DNA of 64,000 nucleotides from IMG/VR virus record IMGVR_UViG_3300029543_000199; one strand, written 5' to 3'. Below, piece after piece: positions 19,499 to 60,922 of this stretch. The stretch comes from a virus (lineage: Duplodnaviria; Heunggongvirae; Uroviricota; Caudoviricetes). Below the pieces are notes generated by a model. That model saw nothing but the letters and a program-made list of their open reading frames with translations, ran no database searches and was not told the DNA's origin. Positions within the stretch are counted from its first letter, which is position 1; every line of letters starts with the position of its first letter. The position numbers and the translations under genes are program-made.

Positions 19499-19572
19499 GG
19501 ATTGTTAGCTCAGTGGGTTAGAGCAGTCGGCTCATAACCGACCGGTCATCCGTTCGAGTCGGATACGATCCA
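19499..19572 (+). tRNA. tRNA-Met/Ile2 (anticodon CAT), elongator type
   Basis: GGATTGT-TA-GCTC-AGTGGGTTA-GAGC-A-GTCGG-CTCATAA-CCGAC-CGGTC-ATCCG-TTCGAGT-CGGAT-ACGATCC-A. G1-C72 paired. Confidence 0.8.
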
Positions 19573-23847: not shown

Positions 23848-23859
23848 AAAGGAGAAAAT

Positions 23860-24999
23860 ATGTATTACATAACAGTAAAACAGCCACCATCATACCACCA
23901 GATGACTCTGGAAGAGTTCCTATTTGGATCTGGTTCTGGCGCACAGTTAATAAATGCAAATTTAACGAATACAAGGACGTATGAGGTTGAAGAAGTTAGT
24001 GATCGATTTCTTCAGCTTGTTGATATTGACAAGCTTATTGCAAAACTCGAATGGTTCAACGAAAGAACAGAATATTTAAGAGAGAAGCCACGGCATGAAT
24101 GGTACTATGAGTTCCATATTCCGAAAAAGAGTGGCGGACTTAGAAAGATTGACGCTCCGGAACCGGAACTCAAAGAAGCATTACGCACTCTGAAAAATAT
24201 ATTTGAGGTTGATTTCAAAGCGCTTTATCACACATCAGCATTCGCATATATACAAGGTAGAAGTACGTTAGATCTTTTGAAAAGGCATCAGGCGAATGAA
24301 AGTAAGTGGTTTGAGAAGTTAGACTTATCCAATTTCTTTGGAAGCACAACAATGGAATGGGTGCTGCATATGTTTTCGATGGTGTTCCCATTCTCGGAAG
24401 TAATGAAAGATGACAAAGGAAAAGAAGCACTTGCAAAGGCTCTTGAGCTTGGATTCTTGGATGGGGGACTTCCACAGGGAACTCCGTTGTCTCCAACCAT
24501 TACAAACATTATGATGATTCCGGTTGATTTTGAAGTTGCAAGAACACTCAGAGAATACAATCACCAGAGGTTTGTATATACAAGATATGCTGATGATTTC
24601 CAGATTTCATCTAAATATGGGTTTAGCTTTATGGAAATCCAGAATGTAATCGTATCAATACTGAATGATTTCGGAGCGCCGTTTACAATCAAGAAAGAGA
24701 AGACGAGATATGGATCGTCAGCGGGTCAGAACTGGAATCTTGGATTGATGCTCAACAAAGATAATGAAATCACGATAGGTCACAAAAAGAAAAGACAATT
24801 CCAGGCAATGCTTTCATCGTATGCTATGGATAGAAAGAATGGAATCGCCTGGGATAAAAGTGATATTCAAACGATGGACGGGTATAGAAACTATTACCGG
24901 ATGGTTGAGGGAGAAAAGATTGACGGAATCGTTAAACATCTCAGCGAGAAATTTGGTGTGGATATCGTGAAATCAATTAAAGAAGACCTCACAGCTTAG
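23860..24999 (+). CDS. Reverse transcriptase, retron-type (not DGR, not group II intron)
   Basis: Start at the ATG with RBS GAAAGGAGAAAATATG. Motifs FHIPKKSGGLRKIDAP, FAYIQGRS, LDLSNFFGS, LPQGTPLSP, FVYTRYADDF. Post-YADD NWNLGLMLN resembles the retron VTG segment. No maturase or endonuclease domain. Confidence 0.85.
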   Translation: MYYITVKQPPSYHQMTLEEFLFGSGSGAQLINANLTNTRTYEVEEVSDRFLQLVDIDKLIAKLEWFNERTEYLREKPRHEWYYEFHIPKKSGGLRKIDAPEPELKEALRTLKNIFEVDFKALYHTSAFAYIQGRSTLDLLKRHQANESKWFEKLDLSNFFGSTTMEWVLHMFSMVFPFSEVMKDDKGKEALAKALELGFLDGGLPQGTPLSPTITNIMMIPVDFEVARTLREYNHQRFVYTRYADDFQISSKYGFSFMEIQNVIVSILNDFGAPFTIKKEKTRYGSSAGQNWNLGLMLNKDNEITIGHKKKRQFQAMLSSYAMDRKNGIAWDKSDIQTMDGYRNYYRMVEGEKIDGIVKHLSEKFGVDIVKSIKEDLTA

Positions 25000-33874: not shown

Positions 33875-34588
33875 ATGAGAGTTTTACTGTTATTAAGAGG
33901 AAGCGCAGGATGTGGGAAATCCACATGGATTGAGCAGAACGGATTAAAACAGTATGCATTATCAGCAGATAATATTAGAATGATGTGCTCAAGTCCGCAG
34001 ATGATGCCGGACGGAACACACGCAATCAGTCAGGCAAATGACAATATTGTGTGGAAAACACTGTTCAATATCTTGGAGACAAGAATGAAGAATGGCGAGT
34101 TTACTGTGATTGATGCTACTAACTCTAAAACATCTGAAATGAATAGATATAAGAAGATGTGCGATGAGTACAGATACCGAATCTACTGCGTTGATATGAC
34201 GACTGTTCCAATCGAGGTAACAAAGGAAAGAAATCGAGGGCGACAGGAACTGAAAAGAGTGCCGGAAGAAGTAATCGATAAGATGTATGCAAGGTTCGAG
34301 ACACAGAAAATTCCGTCAGGCATTAAAGTTATTCAGCCAGATGAGTTAAACGCTGTTTTGGTGAAGTTAAATGATGAGATATCTCCATACTGCTTTTCTT
34401 TGATGTACTTATTTCTTCTAAGCTCAAGAATCCACTCTCCGACGGAATCCGCACCAGCAGCTACCTCTCCCGGTTCTCTAAATACTGTATTCTTTACCTC
34501 TACCGTATTGAAAGTACCGTCGTTATCGAGGATAACAGCTCTCAGGCTTCCACCAAACTCAACTCTTCCTTCAAGATTGAAGGCATGA
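33875..34588 (+). CDS. Polynucleotide kinase-like P-loop kinase. The 3' end is uncertain: the ORF runs 255 nt into the convergent phosphatase gene.
   Basis: Start at the internal ATG with RBS GAGAGGTGAAAACATG. Walker A LLLRGSAGCGKST; T4-Pnk-like kinase fold for ~170 residues. The last ~65 codons are low-complexity and look like antisense read-through. Confidence 0.55.
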   Translation: MRVLLLLRGSAGCGKSTWIEQNGLKQYALSADNIRMMCSSPQMMPDGTHAISQANDNIVWKTLFNILETRMKNGEFTVIDATNSKTSEMNRYKKMCDEYRYRIYCVDMTTVPIEVTKERNRGRQELKRVPEEVIDKMYARFETQKIPSGIKVIQPDELNAVLVKLNDEISPYCFSLMYLFLLSSRIHSPTESAPAATSPGSLNTVFFTSTVLKVPSLSRITALRLPPNSTLPSRLKA

Positions 34589-35187
34589 TTGTTGACTTTT
34601 ACCGGAAGTCCTTTTGTATTTCTATGACCATGAATCTGATAACAATTTTCATCCATCTTATCCTCGAATGTTGCATCTACCTGCTCAGCATCGTTGTATC
34701 TTCCAACACCCTTAATCATCTGACTGGTAGATACCATTGTGAGATTATCTGGAATCATACTTAACCCAGCATGTGTGGCAAGGACTGTCTTACCTCTGAA
34801 TTCGTAATAAGCGCACTGACCCATCCGTCTGTAAAGCTTCCTGATTGACTTCTTATCAATACCGGCTGCTTCGATTTCTGCTTTTGTATGGAATTCAAAC
34901 TCTTTAGATGCCGTCACTTTATCATGCGCCCAGTCCCATAACCACCGCTCATGATTACCCTCAAGAAGCAGCACATTCGGCTTATCATATGTTGAAAGCA
35001 AGAACTTCAAGACATCAGCGTTTTCAATTCCTCGATCTGTGTAATCACCACAGAAGATGTAGAATTCATCATCTTTAAAACCGCCATTCGCTTCAAAATA
35101 TGTATTCAATGCTGTATTACATCCATGAATATCTCCAATATGATGGATACGTTTGTACTGATCCAGATTGAATTTCTTCATAAACAC
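34333..35187 (-). CDS. Lambda-phosphatase-like (PPP family) metallophosphatase. Only minus-strand gene in the 53-kb plus-strand array.
   Basis: GDIHGC, GDYTDRG, GNHERW motifs. Confidence 0.75.
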   Translation of the reverse strand: MFMKKFNLDQYKRIHHIGDIHGCNTALNTYFEANGGFKDDEFYIFCGDYTDRGIENADVLKFLLSTYDKPNVLLLEGNHERWLWDWAHDKVTASKEFEFHTKAEIEAAGIDKKSIRKLYRRMGQCAYYEFRGKTVLATHAGLSMIPDNLTMVSTSQMIKGVGRYNDAEQVDATFEDKMDENCYQIHGHRNTKGLPVKVNNHAFNLEGRVEFGGSLRAVILDNDGTFNTVEVKNTVFREPGEVAAGADSVGEWILELRRNKYIKEKQYGDISSFNFTKTAFNSSG

Positions 35188-36088
35188 AGCGTTTTATGAC
35201 AAAATCTGGGACGAGCAGACAACAAAGGCAAGAGGATTATACATCAATATTCCGAAACAGAAGATTGTTGCCAGAGCTTATGATAAGTTCTTTAACATCA
35301 ATGAAAGACCAGAGACAGAATTAGACAAGCTGCAGGATAAGTTGGCATTCCCGGTAAGAGCATACGTCAAAGAGAATGGATATCTTGGAATCGTATCCAA
35401 TAATCCAGAAACAGGAAAGCTGTTTGTGACTACTAAATCAAACCCGGAAGGGTCATATGCTGAATGGTTTGCTGAAGCACTTCATACACAGCTTGGTGAC
35501 GATACTCTTGATAAGATCAATGCTTATTGTAAAGAGCACGATGTATCATTTGTATTTGAAAATGTAGACATGGAAAGAGACCCTCATATCATTAAGTATT
35601 CGGGAAGCAGAGTATTTCTGCTGGATATAGTATCGAATGATATGAAATTCCAGAAGCTTAGTTTTGAGGAGATGTGTACTGTTGCCGAATCTCTCAAAAT
35701 TCCTCATAAAGAATTAGGATACGAGATTGAAACATGGCAGGATTTCTTTGATTGGTACAACAGGGTAATGGATGAAGATTACAAGTACGGCGGAAGACGC
35801 ATCGAAGGATTCGTTATTGAAGATTCAAACGGGTACATGGTTAAGTTGAAACTGGCGTACTACAATTTCTGGAAATTCATGAGATCAATTTCGCATGAAG
35901 CTATTAAGAAAGGATATATTGACCCGAAAAGAACAGCTGCGTTGGTAACACCTCTTGCAAATCAGTTCTATGCATGGGTTAAAACACTTCATGATGTAGA
36001 GGATTTAGATAGTGTTCCGAGAAATATCTGCACATTGCGAGATATGTTTTACGAATCAGACTCCGGTAAGAAATTCAAAGATGAATAG
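35168..36088 (+). CDS. RNA-ligase-like nucleotidyltransferase (Rnl2 / Pnkp-ligase-like)
   Basis: Motif I YVKENGYLG (KxNG), IV EGFVIE, V MVKLK. Divergently overlaps the phosphatase start by 20 nt. Confidence 0.5.
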   Translation: MNFFINTAFYDKIWDEQTTKARGLYINIPKQKIVARAYDKFFNINERPETELDKLQDKLAFPVRAYVKENGYLGIVSNNPETGKLFVTTKSNPEGSYAEWFAEALHTQLGDDTLDKINAYCKEHDVSFVFENVDMERDPHIIKYSGSRVFLLDIVSNDMKFQKLSFEEMCTVAESLKIPHKELGYEIETWQDFFDWYNRVMDEDYKYGGRRIEGFVIEDSNGYMVKLKLAYYNFWKFMRSISHEAIKKGYIDPKRTAALVTPLANQFYAWVKTLHDVEDLDSVPRNICTLRDMFYESDSGKKFKDE

Positions 36089-40273: not shown

Positions 40274-40346
40274 CACGAAACATAGCGAGCTTGCAGTAAT
40301 GCAACTCGCTATTTATATATACAAAACAAACGAAAGGAGTAAAGAA

Positions 40347-42938
40347 ATGAATGGATTAAGTAGTAGTGAGGTTCTGCGAAGCAGGGAAATGCATGGCAGT
40401 AATAAACTTCCAGAACCGAAGATGAAGAAGTGGTATGACTTTGCAAAAGAGGCATTGAGTGAAAAAATCACAATGATTTTGATTGCCATTGCTGTTCTGC
40501 AGTTATTCCTCGGATTCATGGGAGTGATGGAACTTTCTGATCCAATCATGATTCTTGTGGTACTTGCAATCGTGACAGTGATTGCTGTAAAGACTGGACT
40601 TGGTGTTCAGAAGTCAGCAGCAGAGTTGCGAGCAAAGACGTCGGTCAGGTACTGCGATGTAATTCGTGATGGGAAAGTTCAGACAATCAACAAGGATGAG
40701 TTGGTTGTTGGAGATTTAGTATGTGTAGGTATGGGACAGGAGATTTTCGCTGATGGTTATATTGTAGATGGAAAAATCTCAGTGAATAATGCAGCAATCA
40801 ATGGAGAGACAAAAGAGTGTAAGAAGACACCGATTCAAGGATACATACACGCAAAAACTACATCAACATCTGCATACACAAACCCGAATTGCTTGTTTGC
40901 AGGAACTACGGTTATGTCAGGCGAGGGAAAGATGATTGTCACAGATGTAGGCGTAAATACAGTCAACGGGGATACGATGGTTAAGATGCAGACATTGGAA
41001 TCTCCGAAAACAGCTCTTGATATCGCACTCGATAATTTAAGTGACTTTATTTCAAAATGGGGAACCGTCGCAGCTGTGGTAACATTTGCAGTTTTGACAA
41101 TGACAGGCATCATGAGTGTTGGGTTCAGCAACTATTTCGGAGGAAATATTTTAGATGTGATCCAGAAAATCGCACAGAATTTCTCTGTCGCATTAACAAT
41201 TATTGTAGCAGCAGTTCCGGAGGGGCTTCCACTGATTGTAAAGCTCGTAACAAAGCAAAATGTTCGGACGATGGAGACGTTCAATATTCTGGCGAAGAAT
41301 CCAGGCAAAATTCCAGAGCTTGCTTATGTGGATATTATTTGTACGGATAAGACTGGTACGCTTACAACCGGAGTCATGACCCCAAAGAAAATCATCGATG
41401 CATTTGTAGATGAAGTTGATGAATCGTCTGAATTATGGAAAGCTATGGTCAATAATATCTGTATCAATAATAGCGCAGTATTCGACGGCAACGGAGAAAT
41501 TACTGGAGGCAATTCCATTGACCGTGCGGTATTAACTCTGACGGATTCTGAAGAGTATGGAAAAATCGTGAATGACTTACAGGTCAAAGCGAAACAGGTC
41601 TTCAATAGTTCTAATAAATATTCCGCAGTAAGTTGTTCAAACGAAGTTACCTATTATAAAGGTGCTCCAGAAAAACTCATTGATCACTGTACGACAGCTC
41701 TCGGAGATGGAATTCAGACATTTACAGACAGCGATAAGATTAGACTGCTTGAGAACATTAAAGAGATGACAACGAAGTCAATGAGATGTATTGCTCTTAC
41801 GCAATCAAAGGAAGAACTTGTTGAGAATGAGCTTCCAAATAACATGACATTGTTAGGAATTATCGGAGTTGTTGACCCGGTAAGAGAGGAAGTTCCAAAT
41901 GCAGTGGCTATGGCTCATAAAGCAGGTATTCAGGTAATCGAGATTACCGGAGATTGCCTTGAGACAGCAAAAGCCGTGGCAGAAGAATGTGGAATTTATA
42001 TGGCTGGAGATCTGGCTATTACAAATGATGACTTTGAAGCGATGTCTGATGACGAAGTAAAAAGTATCATTCCAAAACTGAGAGTTATTTCAAGATGTTC
42101 ACCTAATACAAAACTGAGACTGGTAACTCTTGCTCAGGAAATTGGAAAGTCTGTTGCGATGACCGGAGACGGTGTGAATGATTCACCGGCATTAAAAAGA
42201 GCAGATGTAGGATTCGGTATGCAGGGCGGGTCTGATGTAGCAAAAGAGGCATCTGATATTGTTCTGACTGATGATAACTTTGCAAGTGTTGTAAAAGCTG
42301 TGGAACTTGGAAGAACATTCATGCACAACATCATGATGTTTCTTGAGTTCCAGTTACCAATCAACATCGCATTGCTTATCTTGAGTGTGATTTATCCTAT
42401 GGTTGCAACCGGTGCTCTGCTGGCTTCGGTACAAATTCTGATTGTGAATATCATTATGGATTCACTTAACTCGCTGTCTTTTGGAGGTGAGCCGCCGAAG
42501 GAAGAATATATGTCTGAGCGACCTATTAAAAAGGGTTCTGGATTATTTATTCGAGGAGCTAAGAAACGTATAGCAATCAGTACAGCTACGTTTATCGCCT
42601 TATACGGAATCATCACATTCAGTCCAGTATCAAATATGTTCGCAACTGATGTGGAGGCTATGACGGCGAGATTTGCGCTCTTATGTTTCATGGCTGTATT
42701 CAACGGATTCAATATCCGTACAGAACATATGAATCTATTTAAAGGTATAGGAAAGAATAAGCTGTTCTCATATATTGCAGTTGGAATCTGTGCGATGACA
42801 GTAATTCTGTGTGATTTCGCAGGAACGTTGATTAAGGCAACAGCGCTTGACTTAAATCATTGGCTTGTAATTATCGCACTTGCGTTTATGGTTATCCCAG
42901 TCGATCTTATAAGAAAGGCTGTAGATAATAGAAAATAA
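40347..42938 (+). CDS. P-type cation-transporting ATPase (P2-type, Ca2+-ATPase-like)
   Basis: Start at the ATG with RBS AAAGGAGTAAAGAAATG. DKTGTLT phosphorylation motif; GDGVNDSPALKRADVG hinge; N-terminal cation-ATPase domain; about 10 TM segments. Confidence 0.85.
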   Translation: MNGLSSSEVLRSREMHGSNKLPEPKMKKWYDFAKEALSEKITMILIAIAVLQLFLGFMGVMELSDPIMILVVLAIVTVIAVKTGLGVQKSAAELRAKTSVRYCDVIRDGKVQTINKDELVVGDLVCVGMGQEIFADGYIVDGKISVNNAAINGETKECKKTPIQGYIHAKTTSTSAYTNPNCLFAGTTVMSGEGKMIVTDVGVNTVNGDTMVKMQTLESPKTALDIALDNLSDFISKWGTVAAVVTFAVLTMTGIMSVGFSNYFGGNILDVIQKIAQNFSVALTIIVAAVPEGLPLIVKLVTKQNVRTMETFNILAKNPGKIPELAYVDIICTDKTGTLTTGVMTPKKIIDAFVDEVDESSELWKAMVNNICINNSAVFDGNGEITGGNSIDRAVLTLTDSEEYGKIVNDLQVKAKQVFNSSNKYSAVSCSNEVTYYKGAPEKLIDHCTTALGDGIQTFTDSDKIRLLENIKEMTTKSMRCIALTQSKEELVENELPNNMTLLGIIGVVDPVREEVPNAVAMAHKAGIQVIEITGDCLETAKAVAEECGIYMAGDLAITNDDFEAMSDDEVKSIIPKLRVISRCSPNTKLRLVTLAQEIGKSVAMTGDGVNDSPALKRADVGFGMQGGSDVAKEASDIVLTDDNFASVVKAVELGRTFMHNIMMFLEFQLPINIALLILSVIYPMVATGALLASVQILIVNIIMDSLNSLSFGGEPPKEEYMSERPIKKGSGLFIRGAKKRIAISTATFIALYGIITFSPVSNMFATDVEAMTARFALLCFMAVFNGFNIRTEHMNLFKGIGKNKLFSYIAVGICAMTVILCDFAGTLIKATALDLNHWLVIIALAFMVIPVDLIRKAVDNRK

Positions 42939-42951
42939 GGAGGTTTGTAAC

Positions 42952-43530
42952 ATGTCAATTAGTTTAGTGAAAGGTCAGAAGATTGATCTTACAAAAGGAA
43001 ATGCTGGGCTGAAGAGGGTTGTGTTTGCTCTTGGCTGGGACACAAACAGATATGACGGAGACGAAGAATTCGATCTTGATGTGTCGGCGTTCTTCACTGA
43101 TGAGTCTGGCAAGGTCACAGGAGAGCAGGATTTCGTATTCTACGGACAGCCACAGCATCCGAGCGGAGCACTTACATACTCAGGAGATAACAGAACAGGA
43201 GAAGGAAGCGGCGATGATGAAACCATGACGGTCGAGTTAGAAAAGATTCCGGCAAATATCTCCAAAATCAGTTTCGCTGCAACAATTTACGATGCAGAAA
43301 ACAGGCTGCAAAACTTTGGTATGGTTGATAATTCATACATCCGTGCATACGATGCAGATACAAATGAGGAGCTTTTCAGATACGATTTGAATGAGGACTT
43401 CTCACTGGAAACAGGCGTAGTTGCCGGAGAGCTGTACAGCAGAAATGGAGAATGGAAATTCAATGCTGTTGGATCTGGATTTACTGGAGGATTAGCAGCA
43501 GTCGGTAGAAACTTTGGACTGAATTTATAA
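42952..43530 (+). CDS. TerD-domain protein (paralog 1)
   Basis: SGDNRTGEGSGDDE Ca-binding signature. Confidence 0.8.
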   Translation: MSISLVKGQKIDLTKGNAGLKRVVFALGWDTNRYDGDEEFDLDVSAFFTDESGKVTGEQDFVFYGQPQHPSGALTYSGDNRTGEGSGDDETMTVELEKIPANISKISFAATIYDAENRLQNFGMVDNSYIRAYDADTNEELFRYDLNEDFSLETGVVAGELYSRNGEWKFNAVGSGFTGGLAAVGRNFGLNL

Positions 43531-43547
43531 GAAAGAAGGGTTGGCAT

Positions 43548-44120
43548 ATGTCAGTAAGTTTAGTAAAGGGGCAGAAAATCAATCTGTCAAAAGAAGTAGA
43601 AGGGCTTAAAAAGGTGGTTGTAGGTCTCGGCTGGGATGCAGCAAAACAGGGTGTGTTCGGTCATAAGCCAAACATTGACTGTGATGCGTCTGCAATTATC
43701 CTGGGTAAAGGTAATAAGTATAAGGGTGTTGTATATTACGGAGACAGATCAGCTGAAGACGGATGTGTATATCATCATGGAGACAACCTTACCGGAGACG
43801 GAGATGGTGATGATGAACAGATTACAGTAAATCTTGAAAAGATGCCATCCGATGTCGAAAAGATTGTATTCGTTGTTAATATCTATGCTTGTACATCCAG
43901 AAAACAGGACTTTGGTCTGATTAAGAACGCATTTATTAGACTTGTGGATGACGCAAGTAGAAAGGAAATTTGCAAATATAATCTCTCTGAAAATTATGCA
44001 GGAAAAACTGCTATGGTATTTGCAGAAGTGTATAAGAAAGACGGAGAGTGGAAGTTCAATGCAATCGGACAGGGAACAAACGACACAAGTATCAGTGAAT
44101 TGGCAAACAGATATAAATAA
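43548..44120 (+). CDS. TerD-domain protein (paralog 2)
   Basis: HGDNLTGDGDGDDE. Confidence 0.8.
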   Translation: MSVSLVKGQKINLSKEVEGLKKVVVGLGWDAAKQGVFGHKPNIDCDASAIILGKGNKYKGVVYYGDRSAEDGCVYHHGDNLTGDGDGDDEQITVNLEKMPSDVEKIVFVVNIYACTSRKQDFGLIKNAFIRLVDDASRKEICKYNLSENYAGKTAMVFAEVYKKDGEWKFNAIGQGTNDTSISELANRYK

Positions 44121-44131
44121 GGAGGATTCAC

Positions 44132-44713
44132 ATGTCAGTATTATTAAGTAAAGGGCAGAGGGTAGACCTTACGAAAGGTCGCCCTTCTTTAAAGAATATA
44201 TTTGTAGGTCTTGGGTGGGACATCAATCACTACGACGGAGAATCTGATTTTGACCTAGATGCATCCGTGTTTATGACAAAAGAAAATGGTAAAGTCGGAT
44301 CGGATGGAGACTTTGTATTCTATGGAAATCTGGCACACAATTCAAAGAGCGTAGTTCACATGGGCGACAATCGAACAGGCGAAGGAGAGGGAGATGATGA
44401 GGTAATCAACATCAAACTTGACAAGGTTCCGGATGATTACGAATCAATCGCTGTAACTGTAACAATTTACGATGCAGAAAGCAGACTACAGAATTTTGGA
44501 ATGGTAGAAAACGCATACGTAAGAGTTGTTGACGCAGACACAGGAGAAGAACTGATGAGATTTGACCTGAGCGAAGACTTCTCTACAGAAACAGCCATCG
44601 TTGTTGCAGAAATTTACCGACACAACGGTGAATGGAAATTTAAAGCAGTTGGTAGCGGATATAACGGAGGTCTTGCAGCTCTTTGTAGACAGTACGGAAT
44701 TGACGCGGAGTAG
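44132..44713 (+). CDS. TerD-domain protein (paralog 3)
   Basis: MGDNRTGEGEGDDE. Confidence 0.8.
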   Translation: MSVLLSKGQRVDLTKGRPSLKNIFVGLGWDINHYDGESDFDLDASVFMTKENGKVGSDGDFVFYGNLAHNSKSVVHMGDNRTGEGEGDDEVINIKLDKVPDDYESIAVTVTIYDAESRLQNFGMVENAYVRVVDADTGEELMRFDLSEDFSTETAIVVAEIYRHNGEWKFKAVGSGYNGGLAALCRQYGIDAE

Positions 44714-46030: not shown

Positions 46031-46381
46031 ATGCAGAAAGACAAAATTATCTATACGGTTAAGCACAGAAAAGCATTCAGAAGAGTAGAGAAAGAACTGC
46101 TTGGACATAACACCCTGAGAGGAATCCTTCATGATTTGGATAAGGTGTTTCTGTATATGATTTTTGATTATAAATCAGTGCATAACTGGCATAGGAATCA
46201 TTCCAGACATCATTCTATTAAGGCAAAGACACATAGTGATTTTGTCCAAATGGTAGTGGACTGGGAATGTTCAAGATATACAAAGCCAGACAAACCATTA
46301 AATGCGAGAGAGACGCTCAACAAGTTCTATCCTGAATTAAAAGACGAGGTTTTACCTGTCATTCAGGAACTTGGTTTATAA
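46031..46381 (+). CDS. Hypothetical His-rich protein
   Basis: 116 aa, RBS GAGGAGTTAAAGATG. Confidence 0.5.
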   Translation: MQKDKIIYTVKHRKAFRRVEKELLGHNTLRGILHDLDKVFLYMIFDYKSVHNWHRNHSRHHSIKAKTHSDFVQMVVDWECSRYTKPDKPLNARETLNKFYPELKDEVLPVIQELGL

Positions 46382-46392
46382 AATTGATGTTT

Positions 46393-46426
46393 GACAGGGT
46401 GGAGTCACATCTGCCCTGTTGATTTT
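46393..46426 (+). terminator. Rho-independent terminator
   Basis: ACAGGGTGGAGTCACATCTGCCCTGT followed by TGATTTT. Confidence 0.55.
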
Positions 46427-46711
46427 CTACAGCAGACAATAGGCGGTATCTGTAACACCTATTGTAGAAGACTTTGCTCGGTATATGATTTATTCAGTGC
46501 ATGAAAACAGATAAGTGCGTTGATAACGAGCAACACTCCAAAGTCTTGGGTAGTTTTTGAGGAGAGAACCCTTCCGACTTAGGTGATATCGGTATCCGGG
46601 TTACGGGAGAATAGTTTGGAGCCTGCAGAAGCGACGTAACCGCGTGACCAGACATAGGAGGAAACGAGCCTCCTACCACCAGTAAACAGGGCGATAGCTG
46701 GATGGATTTTC

Positions 46712-47039
46712 GGGGCTGTAAAGGTTTCGACAGGGGTATGAAAGTTATGAATTCGCTAGAGTGATGACTTAATCATCAACCATTAAACACAAACGCAAAC
46801 AGACAGATGTTAGCAGTAGCCTAAGTTGCTACACCAAAATGTATTGAGATATTGCTGGTAGATACTGAGGTTCAAAAACAAGCATAATTTGTATACGGTT
46901 CTCTGTAAATGAACACCTGTATTGGTTGAGATAGTTAAGAACAGAGTGGTGGATAGAAATCAGTACATGATTCCAAAACAGCGTAAAGATTCATAGTGAG
47001 TAATATTTTTGGACAGGGGTTCGACTCCCCTCAGCTCCA
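46712..47039 (+). ncRNA. ssrA: tmRNA (ssrA-like transfer-messenger RNA)
   Basis: 5' GGGGCTGTAAAGGTTTCGACAGGGG and 3' GGACAGGGGTTCGACTCCCCTCAGCTCCA match the tRNA-like domain of bacterial tmRNA (acceptor GGGGCTG/CAGCTCC, T-arm GGGG-TTCGACT-CCCC). Internal reading frame GCA AAC AGA CAG ATG TTA GCA GTA GCC TAA (ANRQMLAVA-stop). Confidence 0.7.
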
Positions 47040-47068
47040 TTTATATTTAAGAAAGGCTGATAGTTATT

Positions 47069-47655: not shown

Positions 47656-47892
47656 ATGTGTAAAGTAATGTTAAATTCTATTGACAAAGTTAAGGAGTTC
47701 GTAAATAAAACATCCAGAGTAGACGGAGATGTGTTCCTGCAATCTGGAAGATATATCATTGATGCTAAATCAATTATGGGGATTTTCAGCTTAGACCTGA
47801 CAAAGCCGTTGAGTTTAAGCTTTGAGAAATGCTCTGATGAAGAAGTTCAGAATTATATGAGTAGCATCCATGAATTCATTATGGAGGAGTAA
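47656..47892 (+). CDS. HPr/Crh-like phosphocarrier-fold protein lacking the active-site His15
   Basis: GDVFLQSGRYIIDAKSIMGIFSLDL closely parallels Crh/HPr SDVFLEKDGKKVNAKSIMGLMSLAV, including the Ser46-equivalent in KSIMG. No His in the N-terminal region (LNSIDKV where GIHARPA would be). Confidence 0.55.
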   Translation: MCKVMLNSIDKVKEFVNKTSRVDGDVFLQSGRYIIDAKSIMGIFSLDLTKPLSLSFEKCSDEEVQNYMSSIHEFIMEE

Positions 47893-48511
47893 GATGGATT
47901 TGCAAACAATTAAAAATATGGTCTCGTCGGAGGAATACAATTTCCTTAGAAATAACGATCACCTCGGAAACAGAATCATCCTTATCGGACTTGGCGGAAG
48001 TCATGCATATGGAACAAATAACGAGACATCTGACCTTGATGTAAGAGGATGCGCTCTGAATAGTAAGGAAGAAATTCTTACAAATCAACATTACGAGCAG
48101 TTTGTTGATGAGAAAACGGATACTACAGTGTATGCGTTCAATAAGTTAATAAGTTTGCTTTGTAATTGCAATCCAAATACGATTGAGATGCTTGGGTTAA
48201 AGCCTGAGCATTATTTATTTCTGTCTCCTGTAGGACAGGAATTATTACATAATAAGGATTTGTTCCTTTCAAAGAAAGCGGCACAGGCTTTCGGTGGATA
48301 TGCTACGGCTCAGCTTAGAAGACTTGATAATAAAGCAGCAAGGCTTGTCGGTCAAGCGCAGCGGGAGCAACACATATTAAACAGTATACGTAACGTGGGT
48401 GCAGACTTCAAAGAAAGATATTTTGAATATCCGGATGACGCGATCAAGTTGTATATCGATAAGTCGGATAGGGAAGATATGATTCCGAAATTTATATGGA
48501 TGTGCATTTAA
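47870..48511 (+). CDS. Pol-beta-superfamily nucleotidyltransferase
   Basis: GLGGSHAYGTNNETSDLDVRG (GS-x9-13-DhD). Confidence 0.6.
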   Translation: MNSLWRSKMDLQTIKNMVSSEEYNFLRNNDHLGNRIILIGLGGSHAYGTNNETSDLDVRGCALNSKEEILTNQHYEQFVDEKTDTTVYAFNKLISLLCNCNPNTIEMLGLKPEHYLFLSPVGQELLHNKDLFLSKKAAQAFGGYATAQLRRLDNKAARLVGQAQREQHILNSIRNVGADFKERYFEYPDDAIKLYIDKSDREDMIPKFIWMCI

Positions 48512-48921
48512 CAAGATATCCACTTCGGGATTATAAATCAATGTGGTCTGAAATGCATAATGTGGTGAAGGACTACGCCAAGGTAGGGAAAAGAAATAAG
48601 AATGCGATAGAGCATAACAAATTAGGAAAGCATATGATGCATCTAATCAGGCTCTATATGATGTGCCTTGATATTCTTGAGAGAAAAGAGATTGTAACAT
48701 TCAGAGAGAAAGAACATGAACTGCTGATGTCAATCAGAAATGGTGAATACCTTGATGGTAATAGACAGCCAATACCGGAGTTCTTTGAAATGGTCGATGA
48801 CTACGAAAAGAAGATGAAGTATGCAAAAGAAAATACAGATCTTCCTGAAAATCCAGACTATAAGGCAATACAGGAATTTGTGATGGACGTAAACGAAAGA
48901 GTTGTAAGAGGACTAATTTAG
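48496..48921 (+). CDS. HEPN-like protein partnered with the nucleotidyltransferase
   Basis: RNKNAIEH fits the Rx4-6H motif; overlaps the nucleotidyltransferase gene by 16 nt in another frame. Confidence 0.4.
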   Translation: MDVHLTRYPLRDYKSMWSEMHNVVKDYAKVGKRNKNAIEHNKLGKHMMHLIRLYMMCLDILERKEIVTFREKEHELLMSIRNGEYLDGNRQPIPEFFEMVDDYEKKMKYAKENTDLPENPDYKAIQEFVMDVNERVVRGLI

Positions 48922-48933
48922 GAGGTGTAAGCT

Positions 48934-49749
48934 TTGGGTGAAATTGTAAATATTGCAGATGCTAAAAATAAGGTAATTGATTTACAGGCACTACAGAGAA
49001 GTAAGGTTAAGTCCGCAGCCGGTTTAATTGCTCCTGCGAAAGAGGAAACCCATTGCGAATTAGCACCGGAACATGCTGCGGAGCCAATTAAAAGTCTGGA
49101 TGATATCTATGCAATTTCTGAATTTCTCATTTCTAATAAAAGATACAGAGATAACATGCTATTCATAGTCGGCATCAACTTTGGACTTCGAGTCAGCGAT
49201 TTAAGGATGCTGAGATTCTCAAATCTTATCAATGATAATTTCACATTTCGTGATAACTTCCCAGTATTTGAAAAGAAAACAAGAAATACAAGGAAAAGAA
49301 AAAAGAATAGATATATCACAATCAATACCGCCGTTATAGAGGCGGTAACTTTATATCTTGAGAATACGCCAGGCGTTACGTTGAGTGATTATCTATTTCG
49401 TAGCGAATCCAATAGGGGGAAATCAACGAATCAGCCATTATCAAAACAGTCAATAGACCGGATTTTAAAAGGAATTGCGGTCGATTTGCACCTGAACATA
49501 AGGATTGCTACACATAGTTTACGGAAAACATTTTGCTATCACCAGATGGTGATGTCGAACAATGATAGCAGAAAGCTTTTGCTTTTGCAGAAGATGCTGA
49601 ATCATTCTTCGCCCGCACAGACGCTGGATTACATCGGAATCACTTCCGAGGAAATCGAAGCTGCGTATAAGGAATTGAATCTTGGAGGAAGAACAAGGAA
49701 TTATCTGATGGACAGTAACATAGTAGAAGTCGAGAATTTTGCGGGGTAG
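48934..49749 (+). CDS. Tyrosine recombinase (second integrase-family gene), TTG start
   Basis: IATHSLRKTFCYHQM (HxLRK) and LNHSSPAQTLDYIGI (Tyr nucleophile); RBS TTTAGGAGGTGTAAGCTTTG. Confidence 0.7.
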   Translation: MGEIVNIADAKNKVIDLQALQRSKVKSAAGLIAPAKEETHCELAPEHAAEPIKSLDDIYAISEFLISNKRYRDNMLFIVGINFGLRVSDLRMLRFSNLINDNFTFRDNFPVFEKKTRNTRKRKKNRYITINTAVIEAVTLYLENTPGVTLSDYLFRSESNRGKSTNQPLSKQSIDRILKGIAVDLHLNIRIATHSLRKTFCYHQMVMSNNDSRKLLLLQKMLNHSSPAQTLDYIGITSEEIEAAYKELNLGGRTRNYLMDSNIVEVENFAG

Positions 49750-50920: not shown

Positions 50921-51748
50921 ATGATTATTTTGGATGGAACAGAAGTAAATGTAGCGCATTTTCCAGATGGTACTCAGAGAATTATACTAGAAAATCTTCC
51001 AAAGATGGAGTGGAGAAATATACATGAAATTACATGGAAATTTGAAAGAGAGGAAGAACTGTCTACTTTAATTTATGTTACGAGACATTTGAGAAACATG
51101 CCGTGTATACAGGAAATATATCTTAATTTGCTATATCTCCCAAATGCAAGAATGGATCGTATACATCATCATGAAGAAGTATTCACGCTTAGAGGGTTCG
51201 CCGATGCAATTAACTGGTTGCGATTTGATGTTGTGAGGGTTCTTGATGTTCATAGCAATGTTGGAGCAGCCTTACTTAATAATGTGTTGGTTTGTACACC
51301 GGAGAAGTATTTAAAAGAAGTAATGGAACAGATAGATGAAACCGTACCATTAGTTTTATATTTCCCAGATGAAGGAGCAGCAAAACGGTATTCCGATTTA
51401 TTCCCTGGTATGCGGTATTGCTATGGAGAGAAGAAGAGAGACTGGAAGACGGGTAAAATTCTCGGACTAGATATTGTGACAAACGGCATTGATTTGCAGA
51501 AGCAGACCGTATTGATGATAGACGATATCATCGCTTATGGAGGTTCTTTATACTATAGTGCAAAAGAGTTGAAGCGCAGAGGAGTTGGTACGATTTATGC
51601 TTATGCGACACATACAGAAAACTCTATACTCGATGACGAGAAGGGAACTTTGATTAAGTTATTAGAAGACAATACAGTGGAGAGGCTGTATACAACAGGA
51701 AGTCTTTTTGCAGGGAAACATGACAAAATTACAGTTTTGGAGGTGTAA
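50921..51748 (+). CDS. prs: Ribose-phosphate pyrophosphokinase (PRPP synthetase)-like
   Basis: PRPP-binding loop VLMIDDIIAYGGSLYYSAKELKRRGVGTIYAYATH; N-terminal FPDGTQRIILENL parallels Prs FSDGEVSVQI. Confidence 0.6.
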   Translation: MIILDGTEVNVAHFPDGTQRIILENLPKMEWRNIHEITWKFEREEELSTLIYVTRHLRNMPCIQEIYLNLLYLPNARMDRIHHHEEVFTLRGFADAINWLRFDVVRVLDVHSNVGAALLNNVLVCTPEKYLKEVMEQIDETVPLVLYFPDEGAAKRYSDLFPGMRYCYGEKKRDWKTGKILGLDIVTNGIDLQKQTVLMIDDIIAYGGSLYYSAKELKRRGVGTIYAYATHTENSILDDEKGTLIKLLEDNTVERLYTTGSLFAGKHDKITVLEV

Positions 51749-51750
51749 TA

Positions 51751-53211
51751 ATGGATAATACAATGGCTTTATTATTGTCAGACACATATAAACAGTGCCA
51801 TGACAGGATGTATCCAAAAGGATTGACAAAGCTTGTTTCTTATTGGGTTCCAAGAAGATCCATGCTGAAAAATCAGGATAAGATGGTTTTCTTTGGGCTG
51901 CAGGCATTCATTAAAGAGTATCTGTTAGGTTATTTTCAGACAAACTTCTTTGATGTTAATGAGGAGGAAGTTGTCAAACAATACACGGATGCAATGAACA
52001 TTCAGATCGGGTCAGGGAATTACGATGTAGATAAGATCGTGCAATTACATCGTCTCGGATATCTTCCTTTGGAAATCAGAGCGCTTCCGGAAGGAACACT
52101 TGTTACAATGGGAATTCCATGTATCGAAATCACAAACACTACAGAGGAATTTGCGTGGCTCGTGCAGTGGATTGAATGTATCTTGCAGGTAGAATTGTGG
52201 AAACCTTGCTGCCACGCAACAATCGGTTATATGTACAGAAATATTGCGGACTATTGGTATAACAAAACAACAGACGGTCTGGATGGAGCAATGGCTTGTG
52301 CCGATTTCGGCATGAGAGGAATGTCATGCATGGATGAAGCAATAAGATGTTCGGCTTCGTGGCTGTTATCATTTAATAAGACATCTACAATTCCAGCCAT
52401 TTCATATATTGACAAATATTACAATGCAGATTGTAAACACAACAGAATTGGTATCGGAGCAGTATCCACAGAGCATAGCGTTATGGGTGCAAATTTCTCA
52501 ATCGATGGTGATGAAATTACATTTGTAAAAAGATTGCTTACTGAATTATATCCAGACACATCGTTCAGTATGGTATCAGATACATATGATTACTGGAATC
52601 TAGTGAATAATATCCTGCCTCAGTGCAAAGAAGAGATTATGAACCACAATGGAAAACTCTTAGTTAGACCAGACAGCGGAGATATTGTGGAAATCTCAGT
52701 TAAAACAGTTGAAAGACTGTGGGAAATTTTCGGAGGAACTGAAAATTCCAAAGGGTACAAGGTATTAGACCCTCATATTGGAATTATTTACGGGGATGGA
52801 TGCACATTATCCAATGTCGAAACTATTTGGGAAGAACTTGAAAAGCGCGGATTTGCTGCGAATAACATCGCATATGGAGTTGGGGCATTTTGCTTTACAG
52901 CAATCGTAGAAGATGGAAAGCTTGTAGTTGCTACTAGAGATACATTTGGTATTGCGATGAAAGCAACATATGGTGTTATCAATGGTGAGAAGCTGATGAT
53001 TTATAAAGACCCGAAGACAGACACAAGCCATTTGAAGAAATCACATAAAGGTTGTTGCCGAGTATATAAAGAGAATGGACGGCTGAAGTGTCAGGATCAG
53101 TTGATGGAGATGAGTACCGACAGTTTATTAACAACTGTATTCAAAGATGGAGAGCTCGTCAGAGAAGATTCATTTATGGATATCAGAGAAAGAATGTATG
53201 GAGGTGAGTAG
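51751..53211 (+). CDS. nadV: Nicotinamide phosphoribosyltransferase (NAMPT/NadV)
   Basis: N-terminal LLLSDTYKQCHDRMYP (NAMPT xxDSYKxxHxxxYP); size 486 aa. Confidence 0.7.
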   Translation: MDNTMALLLSDTYKQCHDRMYPKGLTKLVSYWVPRRSMLKNQDKMVFFGLQAFIKEYLLGYFQTNFFDVNEEEVVKQYTDAMNIQIGSGNYDVDKIVQLHRLGYLPLEIRALPEGTLVTMGIPCIEITNTTEEFAWLVQWIECILQVELWKPCCHATIGYMYRNIADYWYNKTTDGLDGAMACADFGMRGMSCMDEAIRCSASWLLSFNKTSTIPAISYIDKYYNADCKHNRIGIGAVSTEHSVMGANFSIDGDEITFVKRLLTELYPDTSFSMVSDTYDYWNLVNNILPQCKEEIMNHNGKLLVRPDSGDIVEISVKTVERLWEIFGGTENSKGYKVLDPHIGIIYGDGCTLSNVETIWEELEKRGFAANNIAYGVGAFCFTAIVEDGKLVVATRDTFGIAMKATYGVINGEKLMIYKDPKTDTSHLKKSHKGCCRVYKENGRLKCQDQLMEMSTDSLLTTVFKDGELVREDSFMDIRERMYGGE

Positions 53212-53620
53212 GTTGGATTTTTATCTGCAATCTGGAAATTCATATAGAAGACTTGAAAATGAATTTAAGAAATACGGTAAGTTGATATTTTGTGTCGATT
53301 TTGATGATACGATTTATGACTTCCATAAGAAAGGAAGAACATATGAAGATGTTATTCATTTACTTCGTAGATGGGAGGATTATTCAGAGGTTATTATCTT
53401 TACAGGAAACGGCGAAGATAAATATGCAATGATTGAGAAGTATCTACTGGACAATCATATTAAGTACAAAGGAATTAACTGTGATGCGTCTGTCGAATTT
53501 GCAGGAAGAAAGATTTATGCGAATGCCTACATTGATGATAGGGGTGGGTTAATACAGGTATATAATGAATTACTTACACTGATTGAAAAGGTCGAAAGGG
53601 GAGAAATTAAGCATGAATAG
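53198..53620 (+). CDS. HAD-superfamily phosphatase
   Basis: HAD motif I FCVDFDDTIYD; start at the ATG overlapping the NAMPT 3' end. Confidence 0.55.
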   Translation: MEVSRLDFYLQSGNSYRRLENEFKKYGKLIFCVDFDDTIYDFHKKGRTYEDVIHLLRRWEDYSEVIIFTGNGEDKYAMIEKYLLDNHIKYKGINCDASVEFAGRKIYANAYIDDRGGLIQVYNELLTLIEKVERGEIKHE

Positions 53621-54626
53621 CTTTAATGCAGAAAAAGTAAAAGGTGATATTGTTGCATGGATTAGAGAATTCTTTGAACAGAATGGTGATGGATGCAGTG
53701 CTGTAATCGGTATTTCTGGAGGTAAAGACTCTAGTGTGGTTGCAGCTTTATGCGTAGAGGCTCTCGGTAAAGACAGAGTTTTTGGAGTTCTGATGCCTAA
53801 TGGCGAACAGATTGATATTGATTCTGCATACGCTTTAGTGGAGCATTTAGGTATTGAGTATTGTGTAATCAATATTCATAGTGCCGTAAAATCCTTAAAG
53901 CATGAGATCAAACCTCAGTTAGACGATCATTGGTCAGCTCAGACGGCTACAAATCTTCCAGCCAGAATTAGAATGGCTACATTGTATGCAGTTTCTCAGA
54001 CAGTCGGCGGAAGAGTTGCGAATACATGCAATTTATCAGAAGATTGGGTTGGTTATGCTACAAGATACGGAGATGGAGCCGGGGATTTTAGTCCGTTATC
54101 AAAACTCACTGTAACTGAAGTTAAAGCAATCGGACATGAACTTGGTCTTCCAGAAGAACTAATTGAAAAGGTTCCTACAGATGGTCTGTGTGGTCATACG
54201 GACGAAGATAATCTTGGATTTACATATGCAGTTCTGGACAGATACATTAGAACAGGGGAAATCGATGATATCCATACAAAAGAAAGAATTGATACCATGC
54301 ATGAAAAGAATTTATTCAAGTTGGAGCTTATGCCGTCGTTTGAATACATAAATCCAGTAGAAACAGTAGTGTTGGATGATAAGCAGACTGGGTATGGTGT
54401 TGTAAGTGAGTATGTTAAAAAATACTGGGAACATCACTGTACTGAAGATGTGATTGTATCAATTGAAATATCCAGAGATGGAGAGAATTATGAATGCTTT
54501 AATGAAGTCGCAAGTCCATACGATATGTATGATGTAGAATATTTAAACGATTGGTGGGAAGGCGAGAAATATATCAGGGTAACAGGTATACAAGGCATAT
54601 CCGATATAAAAATCAAGAAATTATAG
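53583..54626 (+). CDS. nadE: NH3-dependent NAD+ synthetase (NadE) with a ~80-aa C-terminal extension
   Basis: PP-loop GISGGKDSSVVAAL; NadE-like ...ATNLPARIRMATLYA.... Confidence 0.75.
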   Translation: MKRSKGEKLSMNSFNAEKVKGDIVAWIREFFEQNGDGCSAVIGISGGKDSSVVAALCVEALGKDRVFGVLMPNGEQIDIDSAYALVEHLGIEYCVINIHSAVKSLKHEIKPQLDDHWSAQTATNLPARIRMATLYAVSQTVGGRVANTCNLSEDWVGYATRYGDGAGDFSPLSKLTVTEVKAIGHELGLPEELIEKVPTDGLCGHTDEDNLGFTYAVLDRYIRTGEIDDIHTKERIDTMHEKNLFKLELMPSFEYINPVETVVLDDKQTGYGVVSEYVKKYWEHHCTEDVIVSIEISRDGENYECFNEVASPYDMYDVEYLNDWWEGEKYIRVTGIQGISDIKIKKL

Positions 54627-59760: not shown

Positions 59761-60717
59761 ATGTATAATGAAGAAGTGAAACATCGATTTATGAGAGAAA
59801 CGGTTGCTTCGACACCGTACAAATTGAAATTATGTGAGTCAATATTCAATAGCACAGAGCAATTTGAAGAAGGATGGGGAGCAGATTTATGCACGAGATC
59901 TGCAGAAGAGCTTCAACCGATGGTAAATCAGCTTGCAGGATTTAGAGCAAGAAGCAAGTGGTCAAAACTCATTCTATTAAAAGAGTATGTAAAATGGTGC
60001 ATAGAGATGGGGATTGACGGAGCAAGTCCAGGAATGCTAGAGATTAAGACTGTTGGGCTTGATAAAGTAAAACAGCAAACGATAGCAAATCCGAAGCATC
60101 TGCAGAATTATTTGAATGCAATATGCGAACCGGCGGAGAAACAGGCGACTGATAATATATATCGATGTTATTATTGGTTGGCATACGCTGGAATGGATGA
60201 GGAGGACATCTTAAATGTAAAATGCTCAGATGTTGATTTTAAAACTCTCACGGTAAAATATGATAAGAAATATACGGTTGTTCCTATCTATCCAGAAGGA
60301 TTGGAGGCTTTTCATAATTGTGTTGAATTAGATAGCTTTGCATTCCTACATCCAAATTATTCACATGAGATACGAAAGGAAAGAGCAGCCGGTGATACAT
60401 TGATTCGAGGAATAAGATCCGCCTTAACAATAAAGGCATTGAGAGTTGAGCTATCGAGAAGATCGAAGAATAAAAGCGACAACACTCCGCTGAAATTGAG
60501 TTACTTTAGAGTCTGGATTTCTGGAGTTTTCTACAGAATGTACGAGCAAGAAACCATTGGAGTACCGCCAGATTTTAATGCAATCGTATCTCAGCAGATG
60601 GAAGGGAAGACATACAAGCTGGATAGCGGAAGAAACACAACAGAAGCGAAACATAGACAGCTTGTAAGAGATTATGAAGAAGACTATGAAAGATGGAAAC
60701 TTGCATGGTTTTTATAA
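59761..60717 (+). CDS. Hypothetical protein (possible integrase/recombinase-related DNA-binding protein)
   Basis: 318-aa ORF, RBS TTAGGAGGAGCAGATG; no clear catalytic motif. Confidence 0.45.
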   Translation: MYNEEVKHRFMRETVASTPYKLKLCESIFNSTEQFEEGWGADLCTRSAEELQPMVNQLAGFRARSKWSKLILLKEYVKWCIEMGIDGASPGMLEIKTVGLDKVKQQTIANPKHLQNYLNAICEPAEKQATDNIYRCYYWLAYAGMDEEDILNVKCSDVDFKTLTVKYDKKYTVVPIYPEGLEAFHNCVELDSFAFLHPNYSHEIRKERAAGDTLIRGIRSALTIKALRVELSRRSKNKSDNTPLKLSYFRVWISGVFYRMYEQETIGVPPDFNAIVSQQMEGKTYKLDSGRNTTEAKHRQLVRDYEEDYERWKLAWFL

Positions 60718-60808
60718 GTTCATATTAGGCTAATAGCCATATTGATCGCCTGCTACAGAGTGGGCTTTCAATTACATATATCATGCTAATTAAATAATTT
60801 ACAGTATG

Positions 60809-60879
60809 GGGGTATCGCCAAGTGGTAAGGCATAGCACTTTGACTGCTAAATTCGTTGGTTCAAATCCAACTACCCCTG
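60809..60879 (+). tRNA. tRNA-Gln-like (anticodon TTG) with a 6-nt anticodon loop
   Basis: GGGGGTA-TC-GCC-AAGTGGTAA-GGC-A-TAGCA-CTTGAC-TGCTA-AATTC-GTTGG-TTCAAAT-CCAAC-TACCCCT-G. Near-identical in architecture to Firmicutes tRNA-Gln, but the loop reads CTTGAC instead of CTTTGAC. Confidence 0.6.
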
Positions 60880-60922
60880 CTAGGGTGTAACAGCCCACAA
60901 TAAAACTGAAAGGAGATAACAA

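Follow-up and report, generated by a model that had tools for sequence, protein, structure and literature searches.

A compact, phage-encoded one-piece tmRNA that probably works with host factors

The uncultured tailed-virus record IMGVR_UViG_3300029543_000199, analysed here as a single stretch of 64,000 nucleotides (the window), contains a gene for transfer-messenger RNA (tmRNA, ssrA), and this locus raises the question of whether the phage supplies a trans-translation RNA of its own or carries the trace of an integration event at a bacterial ssrA gene. An ARAGORN search of the window identifies a one-piece tmRNA at 46712-47039 on the plus strand, with the tag ANRQMLAVA* starting from position 84 of the gene. 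The Rfam profile RF00023 matches positions 46712-47042 over its whole length (model positions 1-374), with 91 bits against a gathering score of 47 and E = 4.7e-34. A preliminary description of the window had placed a complete tmRNA at the same coordinates, and both programs agree with it; the gene that they call is full-length and one-piece. The two-piece (permuted) tmRNA model, RF04321, reaches 21.6 bits against a gathering score of 47, with the 3' end alone covered, and was rejected.

Both halves of the tRNA-like domain quoted in that description are present, GGGGCTGTAAAGGTTTCGACAGGGG at 46712 and GGACAGGGGTTCGACTCCCCTCAGCTCCA with its last base at 47039, and covariation supports the acceptor stem and the T arm. 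The domain has a tRNA-Ala-like acceptor stem with a G3-U70-type pair, a discriminator A (position 47039), a T loop of the GGUUCGAnUCC type and no anticodon arm; the third acceptor pair is the G-U identity pair of alanyl-tRNA synthetase, and it is kept in 38/38 members of the family described next.

Viral, bacterial-genome and metagenome collections were scanned for two conserved sequence motifs, and the matches were then run through ARAGORN and Rfam. These scans recover dozens of relatives of 267-397 nucleotides (nt); they come from samples of human gut and rumen, and their contigs measure up to 577 kb. Most members lie within tRNA arrays, with 4-21 tRNAs per locus; the clade of the window is an exception, with no tRNA adjoining the tmRNA. 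The secondary structure was derived by covariation and then counted on two alignments, one of the 12 closest distinct sequences and one of 38 distinct family members. In the former, 96.5% of the cells are paired and 31 of the 71 pairs show both-sided changes, a level of covariation reached by 0/500 shuffles, and shifted controls pair at 40-55%. In the latter, 92.8% of the cells are paired, compared with 41-52% in shifted controls, and compensatory pairs number 46/62. The helices supported in this way are the acceptor stem, the T arm, three segments of helix P2, both stems of pseudoknot 1, helix 5, both stems of pseudoknot 2 and one stem in the region of pseudoknot 3 (Table 1). The Rfam match spans the full model and the internal domain contains covarying helices, and the failure of covariance models that the preliminary description had allowed for is not seen.

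The acceptor stem is 97.7% paired with three covarying pairs across the 38 members, and it is pairs 4-6 that covary (GC/CG, UA/CG/AU). The three P2 segments are 95-100% paired, with both-sided changes in 19 of 22 pairs (38 sequences). In stem 1 of pseudoknot 1, pair 47/58 covaries (C-G in 24 sequences, A-U in 12, G-C in 1) and pair 48/57 is an invariant G-C, and stem 2 is 86.5% paired with both-sided changes in 5/5 counted pairs (38 members); in the relative L019, this element is, as judged by eye, a clear H-type knot of 4+4 base pairs. Helix 5 is 93% paired in the 12 closest sequences, with a U-A to C-G change at pair 106/120. The two stems of pseudoknot 2 are 97% and 100% paired, with both-sided changes in 9/9 pairs.

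The preliminary description had proposed checking for pseudoknots between the tag and the 3' domain; their presence holds for pseudoknot 2, both stems of which covary, but only one stem of pseudoknot 3 is supported and a hairpin takes the place of pseudoknot 4. The supported stem is 100% paired in 11 close relatives and shows U-A to C-G and C-G to U-A replacements at pairs 191/234 and 192/233, respectively, and a candidate second stem (nt 203-206/237-240), which is 86% paired with no compensatory change, is not established. The replacing hairpin is 82% paired in the 12 closest sequences. It is preceded by the motif UGGUGGA, which follows pseudoknot 2/3 in most family members and is nearly invariant where present. 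Sequences complementary to this motif are ACC at nt 122-124, a downstream UCC and the UCCACCA of the mature 3' end; support for the downstream UCC as its partner is suggestive at most. The pseudoknot 3/4 region is variable among the family: L050 and L019 have an enlarged version, and L013 is one of the members that lack it.

The tag reading frame proposed earlier, GCA AAC AGA CAG ATG TTA GCA GTA GCC TAA, is found at 46795-46824, and the ARAGORN tag is identical. The resume codon is preceded at the proper distance by the equivalent of A86 in Escherichia coli, which is the main frame-setting base of that tmRNA (PMC2481249), and the tag stop UAA sits within the loop of helix 5. In each of the 38 family members, an in-frame open reading frame (ORF) of 8-12 codons starts from the aligned resume position; it has an alanine-rich or hydrophobic end and survives indels and synonymous changes. 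Because the frame and the frame-setting A are kept across the 38 members, the tag appears to be translated, or at least to be selected as though it were. Its length is not exceptional. A genome scan shows that the pseudoknot 1 sequence GAGUGAUGACnnAAUCAUC is common to the window tmRNA and tmRNAs of Erysipelotrichaceae, and the bacterial tmRNAs that share it, mostly from this family (Bulleidia, Coprobacillus, Thomasclavelia), have tags of 8-10 residues (ANTELAFA, GNNELAFA, ANRQVAFA, ANNNVNYAFA). Given the 8-12 codons in the phage family and the 8-10 residues in these bacteria, the short tag ANRQMLAVA is ordinary in context. The description of the tag as unusual and short is therefore accurate as to shortness and as to the ending AVA, which is distinctive, but not as to the rarity of the length, which is normal in the 38 members and in Erysipelotrichaceae-type tmRNAs.

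In part of the family, translation appears to resume at a codon other than one for alanine, namely AAC/AAT (L128, L130, L132, L144, L151, L159, L160 and L181) or GAC (L167, L175, L182 and L196). The aligned frames of these members, several of which are on contigs of 229-577 kb, give sensible tags such as NNFEYQAAA, NNFEYKMAA and DNRMLAVA; ARAGORN either reports spurious tags (GGTEKPLL, GEVQK...) or misses the gene, and Rfam finds it. The compact phage tmRNAs are thus partly mis-called or missed by ARAGORN.

The window gene belongs to a phage lineage. It is 68-99.7% identical to the tmRNAs of its clade, which are found on viral contigs and, in two copies, on contigs binned in bacterial metagenome-assembled genomes, one of which (L096) has phage genes in common with the window; identity to the sampled bacterial tmRNAs is 47-55%. 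About 20 related phage contigs, up to 165 kb long, have the tmRNA at the same place, including IMG/VR contigs of 66-118 kb with 80-95% DNA identity. The same tag occurs in fourteen metagenome contigs of up to 165 kb, and the contigs of the window clade range from 66 to 165 kb. A blastn search with the tmRNA gives one match only, the uncultured MT835874, in a phage collection and no match in a plasmid collection; a megablast search of the phage collection with 22 kb around the gene also gives no match. Taken together, the alignments indicate that gut and rumen phages of Firmicutes hold a whole lineage of compact tmRNAs. Across 15 distinct close relatives, conservation per 50-nt interval is 90-99.5% within the tmRNA compared with 62-73% immediately downstream, a pattern that points to a gene kept intact by purifying selection. 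The proposal that the phage supplies its own trans-translation RNA is supported by the intact gene, the covariation, the conserved reading frame and the position shared among related phages.

These observations are best compatible with a working phage-encoded one-piece tmRNA operated by host factors, and this is what the gene probably is. What follows is inferred, from expression and charging through the part played by host SmpB to what becomes of tagged proteins and what the phage gains. The tmRNA would be transcribed from the phage genome and mature in the manner of a tRNA, with RNase P cutting the 5' end and the 3' end being trimmed and provided with CCA by a host enzyme. Host alanyl-tRNA synthetase would charge it with alanine via the G3-U pair, and host SmpB and EF-Tu would bring it to ribosomes that have stalled on mRNAs that are broken or lack a stop codon. 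Translation would resume at GCA (46795), four bases past the frame-setting A, and would add AANRQMLAVA, i.e., the charged alanine and nine encoded residues, ending at the UAA in the helix 5 loop. The ribosome would then be released, and the hydrophobic C-terminal tag would be recognised by host ClpXP and/or Lon. The likely benefit is an extra capacity for ribosome rescue during infection, while host and phage mRNAs are cut; this would fit the other RNA-related cargo of the phage, namely tRNAs, RNA ligase, phosphoesterases and an RlaP-like nucleotidyltransferase.

Several points weigh against this interpretation. The 3' CCA of the tmRNA is not encoded (the gene ends in ...CAGCTCCA, followed by TTT), and the three tRNA genes of the window likewise lack it. 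Moreover, a profile search of the six-frame translation of the window detects no smpB at E<=10. The profile was built from 14 bacterial SmpBs found with an E. coli SmpB sequence, a probe validated by its detection of SmpB beside bacterial ssrA genes, and it has no match in the flanks covered of the phage tmRNA loci either. Among viral contigs positive for SmpB by Erysipelotrichaceae-type peptide patterns, a screen of limited sensitivity, none is one of the tmRNA-bearing contigs. With no smpB in the window and no encoded CCA, the RNA must rely on host factors, and its function depends on compatibility with the SmpB of the host. Pseudoknots 3 and 4 are reduced; this reduction is no argument against function, given that the pseudoknots of E. 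coli tmRNA can be replaced without loss of activity (PMC2481249). A consensus scan detects no sigma-70-like promoter between the tmRNA and a terminator-like hairpin upstream of it, a result of little weight, as an RNA polymerase and a sigma-like protein are encoded by the phage itself. Finally, the ending AVA is found in 0/49 sampled bacterial tmRNAs with the same pseudoknot 1 sequence, a sample biased by this search pattern; these end in AFA, AFAA, AAA or ALA, and the fate of the tagged proteins is accordingly uncertain.

This last observation bears on the possibility that the phage RNA switches the degron, i.e., that the ...MLAVA tag is read differently from the host tag, with truncated products being spared or sent to another protease. 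The absence of AVA from the 49 bacterial tmRNAs favours such a switch, as does the recurrence of AVA endings in several divergent phage tmRNA lineages (the window clade, L096, L105, L050, L019, L031/L052 and the L167/L175/L196 group), and Mollicutes-type ...YAFA tags, which are read by Lon and not by ClpXP (PMC9382460), illustrate that small changes at the tag end can switch the protease. However, other members of the phage family have classic endings (ANDYALAA, ANNYALAA, ...QMAA, ...LAAA), so that the family as a whole is not avoiding canonical degrons. In E. coli, an LVA terminus acts as a strong ClpX degron (PMC10862746), which makes a tag ending in ...VA compatible with proteolysis, and the bacterial sample is biased. 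A degron switch is improbable. Less probable still is a decoy, in which the tRNA-like domain soaks up host SmpB (or alanyl-tRNA synthetase or EF-Tu) and shuts down host trans-translation, the tag being irrelevant. There is a precedent in mycobacteriophage DS6A, the element of which has little beyond the tRNA-like domain; such molecules inhibit tmRNA, perhaps by titrating SmpB (PMC4131195), and the lack of smpB in the window would agree with this role. Yet 38/38 members retain the A at -4, the resume codon with its reading frame, the length of the tag and the placement of its stop within the helix 5 loop, and covariation is strong in pseudoknots 1 and 2; conservation of the coding part makes a pure SmpB-decoy role unlikely.

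The remaining alternatives derive the gene from integration. The tyrosine recombinase encoded at 48934-49749, a member of Pfam Phage_integrase (E = 4e-16) that is conserved in relatives, lies 1.9 kb downstream of the tmRNA, and ssrA genes are well known as targets of integration; this enzyme might thus use the gene, or just the 3' end of it, as the phage attachment site (attP) for insertion into host ssrA, replacing the end of the latter. An attP needs the 3' part only, yet the whole gene is conserved, with covariation, and in more distant relatives the tmRNA lies inside tRNA arrays. The longest 3'-terminal identity between the window tmRNA and any sampled bacterial tmRNA is 9 nt, which gives no support for an attP role, and the window contains no second copy of the last 22 nt of the tmRNA even at three mismatches. 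An integration-site mimic is, at best, a marginal prospect. With the gene being full length, its 3' end occurring once in the window and no host genes being seen, a leftover ssrA 3' fragment or attachment-site remnant was rejected. The preliminary description had likewise read the locus as a full gene rather than a 3' integration fragment, with a duplicated ssrA 3' end elsewhere as the sign of a chimeric remnant; no duplicated end was found in the window, phage genes flank the tmRNA on both sides, and relatives have it at the same position. Capture of a host ssrA at a prophage border is suggested by some viral contigs that end in a host-type tmRNA (L027/L043, tag ANNNVNYAFA), identical to bacterial copies with adjoining smpB. 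In the window, such an origin, or that of a chimeric or decaying remnant, is contradicted by the data and hardly needs to be entertained: the gene lies well inside the window, between phage genes that extend for tens of kilobases on both sides, and composition is uniform; no smpB adjoins it, in contrast to the bacterial ssrA loci retrieved; its identity to sampled bacterial tmRNAs is at most 55%, compared with 68-99.7% within the phage clade; no end is duplicated; and the gene is under purifying selection.

The gene upstream of the tmRNA (46031-46381) is closed by a terminator-like hairpin, which suggests that the tmRNA is transcribed on its own. Between this hairpin and the tmRNA lies a non-coding block conserved to the same degree as the tmRNA, of which 141 nt (46569-46709) are absent as one unit in the relative L165. 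ARAGORN detects no tRNA in this block, even with introns allowed and relaxed thresholds, Rfam gives no hit at E<=1, there is no folding z-score signal, and a 61-amino-acid (aa) minus-strand ORF shows no codon-phase bias. The block may be a leader or promoter region. It is probably also what the preliminary description took for a tRNA-like remnant, as it contains AGGAGG-AAACGAG-CCUCCU followed by ACCACCA, yet no tRNA is detectable; the same searches of 46400-46730 (ARAGORN with introns and relaxed thresholds, Rfam at E<=1) give nothing convincing. Of the translation-related cargo listed in that description, the remnant is thus not confirmed, and the three tRNAs are, which ARAGORN places at 4157-4240 (Tyr, minus strand), 19499-19572 (Met) and 60808-60880 (Gln).

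Table 1. Positions of the tmRNA, its structural elements and neighbouring features in the window (nt numbers count from the 5' end of the tmRNA)
Feature	Position	Strand	Basis or remark
tmRNA (ssrA) gene, one-piece, 328 nt	46712-47039	+	ARAGORN, Rfam RF00023, sequence
Acceptor stem, 5' strand GGGGCUG	46712-46718	+	pairs with 47032-47038 (CAGCUCC)
P2 helix, 5' strand (nt 20-28, 33-41, 43-46)	46731-46757	+	covariation
Pseudoknot 1	46758-46778	+	stem 1, nt 47-48/57-58; stem 2, nt 51-56/62-67 (UGAUGA/UCAUCA)
Frame-setting A, four bases 5' of the resume codon, equivalent to E. coli A86	46791	+	A80-A82 invariant in 38/38
Tag frame, resume codon GCA, ANRQMLAVA, stop UAA at 46822-46824	46795-46824	+	ARAGORN and family alignment
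Helix 5 (nt 105-109/117-121), stop codon in loop	46816-46832	+	covariation
Pseudoknot 2	46841-46884	+	stem 1, nt 130-134/150-154; stem 2, nt 142-145/170-173
Third-pseudoknot region	46901-46946	+	stem CUCUGU/ACAGAG, nt 190-195/230-235, around a 34-nt loop
UGGUGGA motif (46947-46953), then hairpin AAUCA-GUACA-UGAUU, in the place of pseudoknot 4	46947-46972	+	alignment
P2 helix, 3' strand (nt 269-272, 278-286, 292-300)	46980-47011	+	partner of 46731-46757
T arm AGGGG-UUCGACU-CCCCU	47015-47031	+	99.5% of cells paired; both-sided changes in 4/5 pairs
Conserved non-coding block directly 5' of the tmRNA	46462-46711	+	91-98% identity in 15 distinct relatives
Terminator-like hairpin closing the upstream gene	46391-46422	+	consensus scan only: 13-pair stem, then T run
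P-type cation-transporting ATPase, full length (E1-E2 ATPase and N-/C-terminal cation ATPase domains)	40299-42938	+	upstream of tmRNA
Three tandem PHROG 5698 paralogues	42952-44713		just downstream of the P-type ATPase
RlaP-like (RNA-repair-associated) nucleotidyltransferase, two overlapping ORFs	47870-48511, 48496-48921	+	N- and C-terminal parts of PHROG 388
Tyrosine recombinase, 271 aa	48934-49749	+	Pfam Phage_integrase
Tyrosine-recombinase-like gene adjoining tRNA-Tyr (same strand)	3103-4125	-	library match
Tyrosine-recombinase-like gene, MrpR-type N-terminal domain, adjoining tRNA-Gln	59761-60717	+	library match
NAD+ salvage/synthesis block: ribose-phosphate pyrophosphokinase (PRPP synthase), NadV, NAD synthetase	50921-54626	+	downstream of tmRNA

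The window as a whole appears to be a single segment from the genome of a large, uncultured gut phage of Firmicutes. Its G+C content stays near 39% throughout, almost every gene beyond about 11.4 kb is on the plus strand, and PHROG and Pfam matches identify phage genes on both flanks of the tmRNA. Besides the genes in Table 1, a spanin-like ORF lies upstream of the tmRNA and small ORFans lie downstream. The split RlaP-like gene is either a frameshift or a pseudogene and, by Pfam, does not encode a class II CCA-adding enzyme. The tyrosine-recombinase-like genes beside tRNAs may represent tRNA-linked modules for integration or resolution, and the NAD+ block may counter NAD-depleting defence systems. 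Farther off, the window encodes DNA ligase, RNA ligase, phosphoesterases, RNase H, an Erf-like annealing protein and a reverse-transcriptase-like ORF. A phosphoesterase (34333-35187, minus strand) and the RNA ligase (35168-36088, plus strand) match consecutive halves of PHROG 8238 (positions 164-447 and 441-732, respectively); the two genes are head to head on opposite strands, with a local dip in GC skew, and look like a fused RNA-repair gene split by inversion. The segment 19600-24999 (plus strand) contains two large ORFans (529 and 317 aa), a ThiF/E1-like protein (22661-23332) and the reverse-transcriptase-like ORF (23836-24999), a homologue of which is located in L050 immediately before tRNA-Gln and the tmRNA. 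A RAGATH-16 RNA motif, detected as a full-length Rfam match (89.4 bits against a gathering score of 65.6, E = 2.8e-16), is intergenic at 13460-13532 (plus strand), near a switch in gene orientation. The tRNA array adjoining the L013 tmRNA includes a tRNA with a CUA anticodon (5285-5363; amber-suppressor type, labelled Pyl by ARAGORN), which hints at stop-codon recoding in that relative; in the window, no suppressor tRNA occurs and the standard code gives a good reading.

The 915-aa protein encoded at 6599-9346 (minus strand) is a relative of YonO-type single-subunit RNA polymerases, with 40% identity to a protein of Clostridium phage c-st, 38% to those of Enterocloster phages and more distant homologues in phages of Bacillus and Thomasclavelia, where their annotation reads YonO-type "RNA-dependent RNA polymerase". 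For the DNA ligase, the nearest relatives are ligases of Geobacillus, Brevibacillus, Enterococcus and Bacillus phages. The relatives of both proteins point, indirectly, to a host in Bacillota, and the likeness of the tag and pseudoknot 1 gives a weak hint of Bacillota, possibly Erysipelotrichaceae.

In comparison with bacterial one-piece tmRNA (RF00023), the window gene has the same acceptor stem with G3-U, T arm, P2, pseudoknots 1 and 2, A at -4, GCA resume codon, tag ORF and stop in the helix 5 loop. The likeness to ssrA of Erysipelotrichaceae extends to the pseudoknot 1 sequence and a short tag starting with AN (as in ANRQVAFA and ANTELAFA). Unlike these genes, however, the window tmRNA is located in a phage without adjoining smpB, is only 47-55% identical in sequence, and is shorter (328 vs 344-397 nt) with reduced pseudoknots 3 and 4; its tag ends in AVA rather than AFA, and it lacks the CCA encoded in many of the bacterial copies.

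Descriptions of tmRNAs in phages go back to mycobacteriophage Bxz1. Those of Bxz1, Catera, Wildcat and other cluster C1 mycobacteriophages and of Bacillus phage G are, like the window gene, complete ssrA genes in large tRNA-carrying phages, but they belong to an unrelated sequence lineage and, in terms of the host, to a different phylum. The tags of mycobacteriophage tmRNAs are much longer than that of the window. Complete genes have been listed in eight mycobacteriophages and phage G (PMC4131195), complete ssrA has been noted in large tRNA-carrying phages (PMC4131195, PMC13014143), and a survey found tmRNA genes in 402 of 18,146 phage genomes, or about 2.3% (PMC9004378). Huge metagenomic phages also carry tmRNA, sometimes with SmpB (Al-Shayeb et al. 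2020, PMC7162821). As in the window family, members of which occur on contigs of 229-577 kb, these tmRNAs, found with ARAGORN, are part of the translation-related cargo of large uncultured phages, but no SmpB was found in the window or beside the family tmRNAs, and the contigs of the window clade are smaller (66-165 kb). Marine phages such as Melnitz likewise have a tmRNA with a sequence pointing to a bacterial source lineage (PMC9004378); the Melnitz tmRNA is two-piece, in contrast to the standard one-piece gene of the window, which has no riboswitch. With the mini-tmRNA of DS6A, the window gene shares a phage-borne tRNA-like domain that is presumably able to engage SmpB, but it keeps the mRNA-like domain, the tag and pseudoknots 1 and 2. 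Thus, tmRNA is an already well-documented phage cargo (PMC4131195, PMC9004378, PMC7162821); the sequence lineage of the window tmRNA was not found described in the literature searched.

The window gene thus adds a well-supported example to the translation-rescue genes of large phages, and the cue that looked exotic, the short tag, is ordinary in context. A more far-reaching interpretation, offered here as a speculation that is unlikely to hold, is that the relatives constitute an undescribed, widespread family of compact gut and rumen phage tmRNAs, in one branch of which a non-host ...MLAVA tag has become fixed, so that the phage takes over trans-translation with host SmpB and a phage-specific tag. 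If so, this takeover would change which protease sees the stalled products, or whether these products are destroyed at all, and the UGGUGGA motif and the 250-nt upstream block would be parts of the adaptation. Should the AVA ending prove to change the fate of tagged proteins, the window tmRNA would illustrate, in a simple natural setting, how a virus re-tunes the protein quality control of its host.

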